This document shows, piece by piece, positions 30,001 through 39,000 of a stretch of 64,000 bases of DNA. Origin of the DNA: Candidatus Omnitrophota bacterium (GTDB taxonomy: Bacteria > Omnitrophota > Gorgyraeia > JAFGHF01); contig JAZDHS010000020.1 in the NCBI GenBank assembly GCA_043805735.1, positions 9,750 through 73,749 on the forward strand. Direction: 5' to 3'. A program made the position numbers. Position 1 is the stretch's first letter, and every line of letters starts with the position of its first letter.

Positions 30001-33000
30001 TCAGCGCCGAAAAAAACGCGCAGGCGATCATCACTGATTCCGGAGGGGTGCAAAAAGAGGCCTTTTACCTCGATGTTCCCTGCATTGTGCTCCGGGAAGA
30101 AAGTGAGTGGAAGGAGCTCTTAACCACTGGGCGTAATATCCTCACCGGCCTAGACATTAGACGCGTGGAAAGAGCCCTCAAGCGCCTTAGGCAGCTAAGG
30201 CCCAATCACTCGGCGAAGAATTTTTATGGTAACGGCTCAGCGAGCATTAAAATGGCGAAAATAATTTACAGGAGCATAAAAGAACGACAATGAAAACAGT
30301 TTTAATTACCGGCGTCGCCGGGATGATTGGGTCGCACTTGGCTGATGAGTTGCTGGCTAAGGGATATAAGGTATTAGGCCTGGATAATCTCTCTGTGGGC
30401 AAGAGAGAAAATATTGCCCAGAATTTGGCTAATCCACGTTTTACGTTTAAGAAAGTAGATATCCGTGATTATAAAAAACTACAAGATTCCTGCAAAGGGA
30501 TTCATTTAGACGCCATCGTGCATCTTACCGCCAGCAAAAAGATCAGCGAAGAAGGAAGTGCTCTGGATGTACTGACCAATAATGTCCGGCCAACCGAAAA
30601 TACGCTTGCGCTCGCCCAAAAGAAGAAATGTAAATTTATTCTTGGCTCTACTTCCGATGTCTATGGCGTAAGCGCCGATATCCCTTTTAAAGAAGAGGGC
30701 AATCTGCTATTGGGCGCGCCCACGGCCAAGAGATGGGCCTATGCGGCGTCCAAGATGTACGCCGAACATTTAGCGTTTGCCTATTACAAAGAACGCAACG
30801 TCCCGGTTATTGTTTTACGCTATTTTGGCGCTTTTAGCCCGCGTGCCAGTTTCAGCTGGCGAGGGGGGCATATTCCGCTGTTCATCGACGCGGTATTACA
30901 AGGGCGCGATATCATCATTCACGGCAATGGCCGGCAAACCCGTTCGATGGCCTATATTTCTGATGTCATCTCCGGCACGGTATTGGCGCTGGAGAATAAA
31001 AAGGCCGTCGGCAATATTTTTAATATCGGCAGCGACGAGGAGTTGAGCGTAATCGCAAGCGCCCATTTGATCAAGAAACTGGCCGGGGCAGGAACTAAAA
31101 CAAAAATCCGCTTTGTCCCAATCAAGAAGATTTTTGGCGACTACCGCGAAATTAAGCGCCGCGTTCCCAGTTTGGCCAATTCTAAAAGGATCTTAGGCTA
31201 TCGCCCAAAGGTAAGCCTACAGGAAGGATTGGCTATCACCATCAAGGCCCGCAGGGAATGGATTAGGGAAAATGCAGATAAAATTAGAAGAAAAAATTAG
31301 GCGGATCAGCCCGGACAAATTTCTGGGCAAAATACACTCCAATTGGGCCAGGCGAATCGTCGGTTTAATTGAAGGGAACAAGGTACTTGAGATTGGCTGC
31401 GGCTACGGATTTTTGACTGATCACTTAAGTAGGCAAGGGTTTAGCGCCTGCGGCATCGACATCGATCAAGAGGCAATCACAGTAGGGCGCAGTTTATTCC
31501 CGCAGGCCGATCTGAGGATTAGCGATGCCTATAATCTGCCTTTTGCCGATAATTCTTTTGATACAGTGGTCTTTCATGAGGTAGTACACCATCTGGACCT
31601 GGAAAAAGCATTTAAGGAGGCACACCGCCTGACGAAAAACTGCGTAATTATTTTTGACCCCAATCCTAACCTAATAGTGAAGTTATGCCGTAAAATGGTC
31701 AGGCATATTGACCCGGAAGCGCCGTTTGACCAAGTGAGCAAAACGCTGGAAAGGCAGGGGCTGGAAATAACCTCTTTAGGGTTCAGCGATCTGTTTGCGA
31801 TGCCCTTATCCGGCGGTTTTGTCGGGCCACGGCTGGTGCCCGATCTGCCGGCTTTGCACAATTTTCTGATTAAATTAGATCAGGCTGTTTGTAATATTTT
31901 GAAAGCTGTTGGCTGCGAAAGGTTCTTTTGCTGGAGATACCTGATCAAGGCCCAAAAAGCGAGGTGAGTATGGTCTACTTTCTCTTACCGGCGTTTAATG
32001 AAGAGAAAGCGATTAGCGTGCAATTGAACGCGATCGGCAGAGTAGCGGCAAGCGGAAAATTTTCCTACTGCGTGTATGTCGTCGATGACGGTTCTAAAGA
32101 CAAAACTAAAGAGGTGGTACGTGAGCTCTCTGGCGAGATGCCCGTAGTGCTTCTGGAACACGAAAAGAACAAAGGCGTGGGTGAGGCCTTCCGGACCGGA
32201 TTTAGCAAACTACTTAAAGCGATGAAAGATGACGATATCGTAGTGACCATGGATGCCGATAATACCCAGGACTTGGCCAGTGTCAGATTAATGGTTAAAA
32301 GAATTGAAGAGGGCTATGAGGTGGCCATCGGTTCAATCTACGCACCCGGCGGGATGATGGTCGGGGTGTCGCTATTGAGAAAAATCCTCTCCTGGGGATG
32401 CAACTGGATTTATCAAATCTGCTTTCCGATCAGCGGAATCAAGGAGTATACCGGATTTTACCGCGCGCACAGCGCCTATGCCCTGAAAACCGCTTACGCT
32501 AAATTTGGGGCGCATTTAATCGAAAGCAATGGTTTTGGCGCAATGGCTGAGATGCTGATTAAATTGAGGAGCATCCCGCTTTTAATGACCGAGGTGCCGA
32601 TGATTATTCGCTATGACTTTAAAGAGGGCGCCAGCAAAATAAAAATTTTGCCCACGATCGGCGAACATATCAACATTATCAGGAAGAATCTCTTTATTAA
32701 AGGAACTTATTAATGATTTTTTTGAGGGCTAACCGGGCCTTTTTCTTGATCTTAACTTTAGCGATAGCGTTAAGAATGATCTGCCTGGATAAGGGGATTA
32801 GCGGCGATGAACGTTTTACCTTGCAAACTGCTCAAGCTAAGCCCGCGCAGATCCTGCAGTTAGTTTCAACCCGGGAGTCGCATCCTCCGCTGACATTTTA
32901 CTTGCTTAATCTTTGGATGAGGCTAAGCAGTTCGGAAGTGTGGATTAGAATGTATTTTGTAATTTTTGGAATAGGCGTCAGCGTATTAATCTATCTCATC

Positions 33001-36000: not shown

Positions 36001-39000
36001 AGGGTCTTTTTGCTTGGCCTGTTTGTGCTGGCCTTGGTGTTACGCTATCTACTCATCATCTATTACTACCACCTCTATTTAAAAACCGGGGCCTTTCCTT
36101 TTCTTGCCCCGGACGGAGAAACGTTGATTAATAAGGGCTGGTATATTTCACAGGTATTGTTGCATCGCGACACCGCGCAAGTGCCTTCTAATGAGTATGT
36201 AATGAAGTTTAACTGGGTTGCCTTGAGCGACTTTGGCGGTAAGCTGCCGCACTGGGATCAGTACCAGGTCGGTATTTACAGCTACTATCTGGGAGTATTT
36301 TTCGCGCTTTTTGGCTATGCGCCTGTGGCGACAAAATGTATCAGCGCGCTCTCGGCAGTAAGTGCTGGCGTGGTCAGTTATTATATCGCCAAAGAGATAT
36401 TCGGCAAAAGCATCGCCCGGGTCAGCTATGTGTTATTGCTCTTTTTCCCTTCAATTTTTATTCATTCGCTGACCAACTTAAGCGATCCCTTCCTGCTTTT
36501 ATTTGGCACCTTGTCAGTATGGTCGCTGGTAAAAATGGCTAAACGGCCGACGCTTTTTTTACTTACGGTTCTGGCGGTTTCGATAACTGCCATTTATTAT
36601 CTTAAGAAACCGCTTGCCCCGCTCATTATTGCCGTCGCTGGGCTGACGTTTTGTAACTTTTTGCGTATGTCGGCGGCAAAAAAGGTCGGTATCGTAATCA
36701 TCTTAATGGCATTAATCATCGGCGTTGGTCCACTAAGAGAAAAACTGGTTGAGACACAGTGGGGTTTGAATAAGCTGATGCTCAGCCACCGCCAGTATAG
36801 CACGCTCAAAGGCGCCAGTTATTTTATTTATCCCCAGCGTTTTTATAATGAGGAGATTCTTTCAGTCGAAGGAATAACCCCGGCGGAAACACTGTTTGCC
36901 CTTTTGAAAGGGCTACTCTACTTTCTTTTTTCGCCGTTTCCTTACAGCGCTTCCTTGTCTGCATTTGGCTTAATTAGTTCTTGGCAGAACATCTTCTGGT
37001 ATTTTCTCTTTCCTTTCAGCCCGATCGGGATTATTGCCGGTCTGCGTCATAATACCAAAAAGATATTGCCGGTCTTTATTCTTCTATTTTTATTTACTTT
37101 TATCCTGGCGCTTTCCGAGGGCCACTCGGCTACGTCCTTTCGCCACCGTGATTTATTGATGCCTGGCTATCTGATTTGCGCTGTCGCCGGTTTTGGCTTG
37201 GCTTTTAAAAAAGGAGGAAATACTCTTGAAAGAAATTAATGTTGCGGTAATCGGATGCGGGTATTGGGGGCCGAATTTAGTGCGTAATTTTCTGGAACAG
37301 GCGGATGCCCGCTTAAAAACAGTCTGTGACCTTTCACCGGAGAGACTCGCCTATGTCAAGCGGCTCTACCCCCCGGTAGTGACGACAACCCAGATGCAAG
37401 ATATCTTTCGCGATAAAGATGTACAGGCGGTAGTCATTGCTACACCGGCGGCCACGCATTTTGACATTGCGATGAACGCCTTAGAGGCCAAAAAACACGT
37501 CCTGATTGAAAAACCCTTAGGGTTAAACCGCCAGGAATGCAAAAAGCTGATTGCCGCGGCCAAAAAACACGAACTGATTCTGATGGTCGGGCACACCTTT
37601 ATCTATAATTCGGCGGTCAGGAAATTAAGGGAATATATCGTTCAGGGATTCATCGGTAAAACTTACTACATCTATTCCCAGCGGCTTAATTTAGGTAAAA
37701 TCCGCCAGGATGTCAATGCCCTCTGGAACTTTGCCCCCCATGATATTTCTATTTTAATTTATCTTTTGAATGAGCTTCCTCACCGTGTGCGGGCTAAGGG
37801 GATGGAATTCATTCAAAAGGGGATCGCCGACGTAGTGATGATGGACCTGGATTTTCCTTCCGGTGTCTCGGCGCATGTCCATGTCAGCTGGCTCGACCCC
37901 AATAAAGTGCGGCGGATGACTGTGGTCGGTAGCGAAAAGATGGTCGTCTACGATGATGTCAACGCCGATGCCAAAATTCAGATTTTCGATAAGGGTATTA
38001 CTAAGAAAAACATCGCCGCCTCACTAGGCGAGTTTAAAAACTTCGGTGAGTTCCAACTGATCCACCGCGCCGGCGACCTGGTTATCCCCAAACTTGATAA
38101 TTATGAACCGCTACAGGAGGAGTGCCGGCATTTTTTGCAATCGATTAGGCAGAACAGCGTGCCCCTTACTGACGGTAAACATGGATTGGCAGTAGTGGAG
38201 ATTTTGGAGAAGGCGCAGGAGTCGATGGATCAGGGTGCACTGCCTGTTGACTTGTAGAAAGAAAGGACCTAACCATGTACCAGGGCAAAAAAATCGCAGT
38301 GGTAATTCCGGCATATAACGAGCAGCGGCTGATTAAGCCGACATTGGAAAATGTCCCTAAGCTTATCGATAAAGTCTATGTAGTTGACGATGCCAGCAGC
38401 GATTCTACGCCAGAGGTGGTTCGGGAAATCGCTCAGCGCGATAACCGCATTGAGCTCATCAGGCACAAGGTGAACCAGGGCCCGGGGCAGGCGATTATTA
38501 ACGGCTATAAGCGCTCTTCCGCGGATGGATATGATATCGCGGTTGTCGTGGGCGGCGATTTTCAGATGCCCTTAGAGCAGGTCACCAATTTCCTCGACCC
38601 TCTAATCAAAGGCAACGCTGATTATGTTAAGGGCAACCGGTTTATGATGGAGGGCAATGCCTTTGAGGATATGCCTAAAATCCGCCTGATCGGCAATACC
38701 ATCATTTCGCTCTTAACTAAGATATCTTCGGGCTGTTATAGGATTTTTGATGTAGTCGACGGATATACCGCAATCACCAAGACTGTCATTGATACGGTAA
38801 ACTGGAATCAGGCCTGGAAGCGCTACGGCTATCCGATGGATTTCTTGGCCCGCATTAACGCCTACGGCTTCCGGATCAAGGATGTTCCCCGCCGAGCGAT
38901 CTATCTGACCGGTGAGCGCCAGACGCAAATTAAGGGCTTGAAGTATGCGTTGAAAGTCTCGCCGATGCTGATCCGCAACTTTTTTTGGCGCTTAAACAAA

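Follow-up and report, generated by a model that had tools for sequence, protein, structure and literature searches.

The closest described counterparts of the genes treated here follow a common scheme, in which a family 2 glycosyltransferase (GT2) of the DPM1/GtrB/ArnC type makes a polyprenyl-monophosphate sugar, a flippase turns it over, and a GT-C enzyme with an aspartate in its first loop transfers the sugar on the outside (PMC8035078; PMC11127046). Flippases of the MOP/Wzx type serve such glycosylation systems (PMC11127046; PMC8035078), precedents for the flipping step being GacK and the MATE flippase of Citrobacter, and the GacI/K/L system combines a GT-A synthase that has no transmembrane (TM) helix with a Wzx-type flippase and a GT-C. 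Several such enzymes may coexist: in L. lactis, three GT-A/GT-C pairs are served by a single flippase, three pairs also occur in B. subtilis (PMC8035078), and multi-GT-C loci have been noted in Xanthomonas and Bacillus (PMC11127046). We analyzed a 64,000-nucleotide stretch (the window) of the genome of a Candidatus Omnitrophota bacterium (contig JAZDHS010000020.1, positions 9,750 to 73,749), in which a DPM1-like GT2 gene, GT2a, is followed by three genes for large membrane proteins, GTC1, GTC2, and GTC3. These three proteins are very probably periplasmic glycosyltransferases that depend on lipid-linked sugars. The fuller reading, in which they belong to a multi-component periplasmic glycosylation module within a surface-glycan locus and act on a polysaccharide acceptor, is one that we favor with moderate confidence.

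The locus resembles the three- and multi-component systems (GtrA-GtrB-GtrC of Shigella and Salmonella, CsbB-GtcA-YfhO, GacI/J/K/L of S. pyogenes, and csdAB/CD/EF of L. lactis) in its DPMS/ArnC/GtrB-like GT2, in its polytopic GT-Cs with an acidic first-loop motif, and in its setting in a Wzx-type polysaccharide locus. It shares with GacI/GacK/GacL a TM-less synthase and a flippase of the Wzx rather than the GtrA type, and with the csd pairs of L. lactis the presence of three synthase-like GT2s and three GT-Cs. Unlike those systems, which are built of 1:1 pairs, a single synthase is here coupled to three consecutive and mutually very divergent GT-Cs. Further, neither a GtrA nor a GacJ-like partner was found in the window, and the GT-C families are at most about 34% identical to anything outside the source genome. 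One TM-less synthase with three consecutive divergent GT-Cs is uncommon, yet not unprecedented in kind. The first-pass annotation, a model's reading of the window, had called the arrangement unusual, which overstates the case: systems with several GT-Cs have been described (PMC11127046; PMC8035078), and within Omnitrophota the trio is met again. Systems of this kind being already known, the only new point is the recurrence of the three-enzyme set across this phylum, whose members are mostly uncultivated, often host-associated and ultra-small, and whose polysaccharide cassettes have been reported as hypervariable loci (bioRxiv 10.64898/2026.06.07.730766). A literature search found no paper on this Omnitrophota trio.

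A DPM1-like GT2 and three GT-C-fold proteins

The four open reading frames (ORFs) are tightly packed at 31970-37239, and the coordinates and the sizes of the GT-Cs (503, 541, and 468 aa) given by the first-pass annotation were confirmed exactly. Stop and start codons overlap by 1, 14, and 4 nt at the GT2a/GTC1, GTC1/GTC2, and GTC2/GTC3 junctions, respectively, which suggests that GT2a and GTC1-3 form one translationally coupled operon.

GT2a comprises 247 aa when read from an ATG with a GAGGTGA Shine-Dalgarno sequence ahead of it; the ORF extended to a TTG starts at 31928. Searched against all PDB sequences, it matched best the dolichyl-phosphate mannose synthase (DPMS) of Pyrococcus furiosus (5MLZ, E 1.6e-16), followed by three ArnC entries (5.5e-7). 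Residues 4-225 align with residues 27-232 of the Pyrococcus enzyme, that is, with its entire catalytic domain, and the DXD motif, 'MDAD' in GT2a, is aligned. With a GT-A domain, a DXD motif, and full-domain homology, GT2a can be placed on sequence grounds among the DPM1/GtrB/ArnC-type synthases. The NCBIfam models that it matched, all below threshold, were PpgS (polyprenyl-phospho-GalNAc synthase), AglJ, dolichyl-phosphate hexose transferase, and ArnC; it reached no NCBIfam equivalog cut-off. By hydropathy, GT2a has no TM-quality segment, and the C-terminal TM anchor of the GtrB/ArnC/PfDPMS type is absent; the first-pass annotation had described the protein as soluble and DPM1-like, and this holds. 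It fits the TM-less synthase subclass (human and S. pombe DPM1, and GacI), whose members depend on a partner or on peripheral membrane binding.

For GTC1, GTC2, and GTC3, homologue sets were gathered separately and then aligned. Each protein has roughly 10-13 hydrophobic helices, as judged from the hydropathy of all three and from AlphaFold2 (AF2) models of GTC1 and GTC3. All three exceed the gathering score of the Pfam PMT_2 model (PF13231; 26.1 bits), but only GTC2 passes the cut-off of the Pfam PMT model (PF02366; 22.7 bits), which GTC1 and GTC3 do not reach.

The first-loop motif of GTC1, SGDE, occupies residues 30-33, and D32 and E33 are invariant in the family alignment. In its AF2 model (predicted local distance difference test 79, predicted TM-score 0.84), TM1 (residues 8-22) is followed by loop helices at 31-41 and 44-54; there are about 11 TM helices, a long loop past TM7, and, at the C-terminus, an alpha/beta domain of some 115 aa. 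With the Arg-rich N-terminus inside, the prediction puts three parts in the periplasm: the first extracytoplasmic loop, the one that follows TM7, and the C-terminal domain. When the model was compared with the PDB by Foldseek, the top 44 matches were all GT-C-fold proteins, nearly all of them glycosyltransferases, and the 30 at E<=1e-3 were all GT-C enzymes. The matches include PglB (8.5e-7), STT3, AglB, Pmt4, DPY19, ALG9/12, ArnT, EmbA/B/C, AftA, and AftD, of which ArnT gives the highest TM-score (0.54/0.51). The GTC1 family profile had no significant sequence match in the PDB.

GTC2 carries NPDE at residues 38-41, in a GLPY...D40-E41 context that is invariant in its family, and has a C-terminal soluble domain of about 130 aa. 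A PDB search with the single sequence returned no match; the family profile matches yeast Pmt1 (6P25, E 3.3e-7). Among the three, GTC2 is the most PMT/ArnT-like. Both it and GTC3 are labelled 'glycosyltransferase family 39 protein' by NCBI.

GTC3 has two extra N-terminal helices, which several of its homologues do not have, and is without a large soluble domain. Owing to these helices the numbering of its loop aspartate is shifted: D94, in 'APDGE', is invariant in the equivalent of the first extracytoplasmic loop and is a single Asp, not a D-E pair. Toward the C-terminus the family shows a nearly invariant 'EGN' and then an invariant 'RHR' ('EGN...FRHRD'; E429, N431, R437, H438, and R439 in GTC3), a motif that to our knowledge has not been described for ArnT or PMT. 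In a Foldseek comparison of its model (predicted local distance difference test 75, predicted TM-score 0.79), the top 27 PDB matches were all GT-C enzymes or the related ligase WaaL; the family profile had no significant PDB sequence match. The family is large: of 1.84 billion representatives, its profile matches 1,320 clusters at E<=1e-30, a number that rises to 6,350 at E<=1e-10, and the best 150 listed are mostly 430-480 aa long with near-complete coverage of the profile; no solved or characterised member of this GTC3-type family was found.

A recent tandem duplication of one GT-C was considered and ruled out, as pairwise BLASTP gave best E values of 0.25-0.77 and homology appears at the profile level only. 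In hhalign comparisons, GTC1 and GTC2 align with 99.2% probability (E 1.8e-19, 360 columns), GTC1 and GTC3 with 97.1% (E 4.9e-11, 139 columns), and GTC2 and GTC3 with 94.1% (E 1.3e-7, 110 columns). D32 of GTC1 is superposed on D40 of GTC2 and on D94 of GTC3, and E33 of GTC1 on E41 of GTC2. Each of the three proteins thus carries an acidic residue where its first extracytoplasmic loop begins; the first-pass annotation had rightly picked out the D-E motifs of GTC1 and GTC2, which prove invariant, but had overlooked D94 of GTC3. The three are best regarded as distant homologues representing ancient, non-paralogous lineages. Every feature checked (the polytopic layout with its loop after TM1, the loop Asp, and structural similarity) supports placing them in the GT-C(A) fold class, and Pfam, PDB-profile, fold, and hhalign comparisons agree with the GT-C nature that had been claimed for all three. 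From the GT-C fold and the adjoining DPM1-like synthase, we infer that they use lipid-phosphate-sugar donors.

Assignment to GT39, GT83, or GT66 specifically is unproven or fails. Pfam revealed no PMT_4TMC or MIR domain in GTC1-3, and the NCBIfam ArnT model had no match to them at E<=0.01. Although PglB and STT3 head the fold matches, an N-oligosaccharyltransferase identity (PglB/STT3/AglB, GT66) was rejected, since the WWD[YFW]G motif and a Pfam STT3 match are both lacking; the similarity to PglB is at the level of the fold only.

Two further synthase-like GT2s, GT2b and GT2c, bring the window total to three such GT2s and three GT-Cs. They are 42% identical to each other over their full length, and both have a DPMS/ArnC-like N-terminal half, AglJ as the top NCBIfam match, and, like GtrB and ArnC, a pair of TM helices at the C-terminus. 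GT2b matches DPMS (1.2e-14) and then ArnC in the PDB, scores 95 bits with AglJ and 66 bits with PpgS (both under the cut-off), and has a hydrophobic stretch at 251-311 that we read as its two helices; those of GT2c lie at 247-276 and 279-311.

Table 1. Predicted genes of the GT-C cluster, its immediate neighbors, and the candidate synthases and flippases of the window.
Feature	Coordinates	Strand	Supporting match
WecB-type non-hydrolysing UDP-GlcNAc 2-epimerase	29160..30293	+	Pfam Epimerase_2 323 bits; NCBIfam wecB 286 bits (cut-off 210)
Extended short-chain dehydrogenase/reductase (SDR), UXS (UDP-glucuronate decarboxylase)-like	30290..31300	+	Best solved relative human UXS1, E 6.6e-40
S-adenosylmethionine (SAM)-dependent methyltransferase	31272..31967	+	Pfam Methyltransf_11, 77 bits
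GT2a, DPM1-like polyprenyl-phosphate sugar synthase, TM-less	31970..32713	+	PF00535, 65 bits
GTC1, GT-C(A)-fold transferase, 503 aa	32713..34224	+	PMT_2 44.9 bits
GTC2, GT-C transferase, 541 aa	34211..35836	+	PMT_2 57.1 bits; PMT 33 bits
GTC3, compact GT-C transferase, 468 aa	35833..37239	+	PMT_2 34.4 bits
Gfo/Idh/MocA oxidoreductase, UDP-GlcNAc 3-dehydrogenase-like, start codon uncertain	37193..38257	+	Pfam GFO_IDH_MocA 96 bits
GT2b, GtrB/AglJ-like polyprenyl-phosphate sugar synthase candidate	38275..39219	+	PF00535, 84 bits
GT2c, GT2b paralogue	62579..63559	+	PF00535, 81 bits
Wzx-type (MOP superfamily) flippase 1	25716..27173	+	Pfam Polysacc_synt 69 bits
Wzx/MATE-type flippase 2, candidate lipid-sugar flippase	57621..59120	+	Pfam Polysacc_synt 77 bits; MatE 58 bits

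Conservation of the trio in Omnitrophota

Beyond the source genome, the nearest relatives of the GT-Cs are 25-34% identical to them. The locus scan of genomes was performed with a 3-sequence alignment, a 9-sequence version being too divergent. In two other Omnitrophota genomes, orthologues of GTC1, GTC2, and GTC3 (about 25-31% identity each) occur in the same order. The first of these loci, L007 (JBDRHE010000059), runs WecB, SDR, deacetylase, methyltransferase, GT2a, GTC1, a 295-aa ORF, an MBOAT protein, a GT2, a B12-binding radical SAM protein, GTC2 (30%), GTC3 (28%), and two family 4 glycosyltransferases (GT4s), the GT4 genes being ordered as are those at 45155 and 47350 of the window; its methyltransferase, directly upstream of GT2a, is an orthologue (39% identity) of the one in the window. 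The second, L009 (JAQURV010000001), runs WecB, SDR, a B12-binding radical SAM protein, GT2a, GTC1, a second such radical SAM protein, GTC2 (31%), an amine oxidase, an aminotransferase, a third, and GTC3 (26%). Because the GT-C genes cluster and keep their order in these two loci, the trio appears to be an old orthologous set that has been retained together in the phylum, and no accident of one contig.

Three further Omnitrophota loci and one unassigned contig contain GTC1, a UXS-like dehydrogenase and, except where the contig ends, a GT2. Two arrangements can be told apart. In the first (L003, L007, and L009), WecB, SDR, up to a few other genes, GT2a, and GTC1 follow one another much as in the window; in L003 the identities to the window are 65% for WecB, 64% for SDR, 49% for GT2a, and 34% for GTC1. 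In the second (L005, L006, and L008), another PMT_2-type GT-C precedes GTC1, SDR, a B12-binding radical SAM gene, and GT2a, the contig of L006 stopping just short of the expected position of GT2a. Across the related loci, SDR orthologues (44-64% identity) lie within three genes of GTC1 in six of six, GT2a orthologues (36-49%) lie beside or near GTC1 in five (L003, L005, L007, L008, and L009), and WecB orthologues (47-65%) lie upstream of GT2a-GTC1 in the three loci of the first arrangement. GT2a-GTC1 with the SDR, usually joined by WecB, is on this comparison a conserved unit. PMT_2-type GT-C genes are themselves clustered in the four loci that the genome scan returned, with three within 21 kb in L007, L008, and L009 and two in 13.5 kb in L006.

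Outside this set, a relative of GTC3 is the sole GT-C of a Wzx/GT4/AsnB polysaccharide locus (L004), and a distant relative of GTC2 is paired divergently with a 243-aa GT2 (L001/L002). A metagenome scan with the GTC2 alignment yielded two short contigs only. In every case examined, the orthologues lie in glycan-biosynthesis loci.

Several features of the related loci deserve mention. Throughout L005-L009, the GT-C, GT2a, and SDR genes alternate with genes for radical SAM proteins of the B12-binding type (class B), of which L009 has up to six in 21 kb; such genes also occur in the window (39219-41636 and 61113-62561), which suggests radical C-methylation or other unusual tailoring of a sugar. 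Between the GTC1 and GTC2 orthologues of L007 lies a gene for a membrane O-acyltransferase of the MBOAT family (12354-13748), which hints at extracytoplasmic O-acylation of the same glycan. In L005, a carbamoyltransferase gene is located directly upstream of the GT-C genes. In L003, the closest of the syntenic contigs, GTC1 is followed by a gene for a 555-aa polytopic protein (11532-13196), which we considered as a GTC2 orthologue and rejected, as it has no similarity to GTC2 and no PMT_2 match; with 'GFGDE' after its first helix and a sub-threshold MASE4 match only, it may be another divergent GT-C-like protein.

Proposed pathway and alternative readings

We propose that the WecB 2-epimerase, the UXS-like SDR, and the methyltransferase would supply a UDP-sugar, from which the membrane-peripheral GT2a would move the sugar onto polyprenyl (undecaprenyl) phosphate at the cytoplasmic face. 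Because no GtrA is present, the resulting lipid-monophosphate-sugar would probably be flipped by one of the two Wzx/MATE-type flippases. GTC1, GTC2, and GTC3, with the first-loop Asp as catalytic residue, would then transfer lipid-linked sugars to an acceptor on the periplasmic face. Since GTC1-3 are non-paralogous lineages of ancient origin that have stayed together from genome to genome, each most likely catalyzes a transfer of its own, set apart by its site, linkage, acceptor, or donor; several periplasmic glycosylation steps, as proposed by the first-pass annotation, remain the best interpretation. The donor of GTC1 may be a sugar derived from UDP-GlcNAc or a uronate by way of WecB and the UXS-like SDR, and GTC2 and GTC3 may use either the donor made by GT2a or additional donors from GT2b and GT2c. 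The acceptor is most likely a Wzx-exported polysaccharide or O-antigen-type glycan, whose assembly would fall to the GT4, aminotransferase, acetyltransferase, and methyltransferase genes nearby. GT2b, GT2c, and the two Wzx-type flippases, which the first-pass annotation had left out, belong to this picture.

A number of points weigh against the pathway as drawn. The activity of all three GT-Cs is one that we infer, and which donor GTC2 and GTC3 would use is conjecture, because one synthase is directly coupled to three GT-Cs. For GTC3 the Foldseek E-values are weak (2.8e-3 to 0.6) and the model has low-confidence stretches; for GTC2 the fold class comes from the sequence profile, the AF2 models being those of GTC1 and GTC3. 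Neither the genes nor the gaps of the window contain a GtrA-type flippase or a GacJ-like partner for the TM-less GT2a. The 64 kb yielded no recognisable initiating phosphoglycosyltransferase, Wzy, Wzz, or WaaL, which leaves the acceptor pathway incomplete within them. Neither Pfam nor NCBIfam gave a match for a 567-aa polytopic protein (22217-23920), whose first 390 aa hold about nine hydrophobic helices and whose C-terminus is soluble; it could be the missing Wzy-type polymerase or a fourth, unrecognised GT-C.

Among the alternatives, we consider it unlikely that one or more of the GT-Cs act in the manner of PMT (GT39) enzymes, on Ser/Thr of secreted or outer-membrane proteins. The actinobacterial Ppm1/Pmt pair consists of a DPM1-like GT2 and a GT-C, and the locus resembles both it and eukaryotic DPM1/PMT in its TM-less DPM1-like synthase, in the D-E pair of loop 1 of GTC1 and GTC2, which recalls the DE motif of PMTs, and in GTC2, which exceeds the Pfam PMT threshold (33 vs. 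22.7 bits) and whose profile matches yeast Pmt1; the NCBI labels of GTC2 and GTC3 point the same way. However, the MIR and PMT_4TMC domains are missing, GTC1 and GTC3 fall below the PMT model, and no nearby gene encodes a candidate acceptor protein. PMT_2, moreover, also spans ArnT-like and polysaccharide-modifying enzymes such as GtlB (PMC8035078), and in every genome examined the genes lie within a nucleotide-sugar/GT4/Wzx polysaccharide locus.

Two readings give the trio a larger part in building the glycan. In the bolder, which we rate as slightly less likely than protein glycosylation, the trio is a lineage-defining Omnitrophota periplasmic assembly line that, together with the SDR, WecB, GT2a, and B12-radical-SAM enzymes, would build or heavily remodel a surface glycan from unusual lipid-monophosphate sugars, for example C-methylated or decarboxylated derivatives of N-acetyl-hexosamine. 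If true, its logic would be nearer to mycobacterial arabinan assembly than to O-antigen side-chain decoration, and three new GT-C specificities would be at hand. In the other, which seems to us improbable, the GT-Cs build or extend the glycan backbone from lipid-monophosphate monosaccharides, as the mycobacterial Emb and Aft arabinosyltransferases do, instead of solely decorating a finished polymer. The mycobacterial embCAB genes are a precedent for three tandem GT-Cs, and the likeness extends, by analogy, to the use of a polyprenyl-monophosphate sugar donor at the extracytoplasmic face. Three different GT-Cs have been retained jointly, their order unchanged from genome to genome; the window has no recognisable Wzy polymerase; and Emb and Aft structures are among the fold matches. 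Against it, the presence of at least five GT4 genes (one encoding a double-GT4 protein) and two Wzx flippases suits the assembly of repeat units in the cytoplasm, and the polytopic protein at 22217 could be the polymerase. Emb proteins, furthermore, are closely related paralogues that measure about 1,100 aa and bear carbohydrate-binding modules, and their decaprenyl-phosphoryl arabinose donor arises by a phosphoribosyl pyrophosphate route, not from a GT2. GTC1-3 are 470-540 aa long, have no detectable pairwise BLAST similarity, and are without large carbohydrate-binding modules like those of Emb and AftD. The Emb/Aft pathway is summarised in PMC11127046.

Equally improbable is an ArnT-type (GT83) modification of lipid A or core, with a cationic or other sugar from an undecaprenyl-phosphate donor. 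As in the ArnC/ArnT system, a PMT_2-clan GT-C comes after a GT2 synthase; an SDR resembling UXS and the ArnA C-terminal domain lies just upstream, ArnC is the second-best solved relative of GT2a, and ArnT is a good structural match for GTC1, with the highest TM-score; a DegT aminotransferase and an lptD-like gene also lie within the window. Yet GT2a is unlike ArnC in having no C-terminal TM helices and scores 36 bits with the NCBIfam ArnC model, against a cut-off of 529; no NCBIfam ArnT or ArnC model comes to or near its cut-off. The Arn-specific accessory genes are lacking, with no ArnA formyltransferase domain, ArnD deformylase, or ArnE/F flippase; lptD is 22 kb distant, and 10 kb separate the genes from the aminotransferase, which is part of another sub-cluster. 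Finally, it is very unlikely that the large proteins are transporters, structural membrane proteins, or inactive relics, a view to which the weak Foldseek values of GTC3 lend something, as no transporter family ranks above GT-C enzymes in any search, acidic residues are invariant at the catalytic position, and the ORFs are intact, with orthologues about 30% identical across their full length.

The periplasmic glycosylation module that we favor adds little mechanistic novelty, fitting as it does the scheme of polyprenyl-phosphate-sugar synthase, flippase, and GT-C. It nevertheless offers a concrete, testable handle on the Omnitrophota surface glycan, and defines three uncharacterised GT-C subfamilies with invariant residues suited to mutagenesis. 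The most intriguing leads are the interleaving of B12-radical-SAM genes and the conservation at the level of the phylum.

The surrounding glycan locus

About 57 genes of the window were taken as real, and every one is on the + strand; the - strand has four ORFs that reach 150 aa, each nested within a + strand gene. The cumulative GC skew climbs monotonically over positions 1-64000. The glycan-biosynthesis locus extends from 9666 to at least 63559 (at least 54 kb) and continues past the window end. It encodes (i) UDP-Glc and UDP-ManNAc-type dehydrogenases, a nucleotidyltransferase, several SDR epimerases or dehydratases, and RmlD; (ii) a carbamoyltransferase, a DegT aminotransferase, two Gfo/Idh/MocA oxidoreductases, three hexapeptide-repeat acyltransferases, two AsnB-like amidotransferases, a FemAB-like protein, and a kinase-GNAT fusion; (iii) about nine SAM methyltransferases, one radical SAM protein, and two B12-binding radical SAM proteins; and (iv) five GT4 genes, one of them for a double-GT4 protein, and two Wzx-type flippases. 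After UXS1, the solved relatives of the UXS-like SDR are UDP-GlcA 4-epimerase and the ArnA C-terminal domain. The oxidoreductase that follows GTC3 scores 169 bits with the NCBIfam UDP-GlcNAc 3-dehydrogenase model, under the cut-off of that model.

The lptD-like gene (7466-9643), which has a weak Pfam LptD match (31.5 bits), is located just upstream of the first gene of the locus. The first-pass annotation had placed it next to the GT-C genes in the same co-directional block; the block stands, but the gene lies 22 kb and about 22 genes upstream of GT2a, and co-directionality is uninformative because all of the roughly 57 genes share one strand. We therefore rejected this linkage as evidence for a lipopolysaccharide (LPS) or lipid A target. 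The gene shows that the organism is diderm and does not tie the GT-Cs to LPS.

At 16795-19203, the carbamoyltransferase (605 aa) is followed by two small membrane proteins that match SxtJ (135 aa) and DUF5989 (82 aa), a recurring trio. Three unusual enzymes are encoded at 54669-57611: one, of 435 aa, joins a protein-kinase-like/RIO-like domain to a GNAT acetyltransferase, and the others are a P-loop protein resembling thymidylate kinase and a nucleotidyltransferase of the NTP_transf_5 type. They suggest sugar phosphorylation or nucleotidylation chemistry. Two successive GGDEF diguanylate cyclases, one with a GAF domain, are encoded at 4680-7366, directly ahead of both the lptD-like gene and the glycan locus, and this pair may place the output of surface glycan under cyclic di-GMP control.

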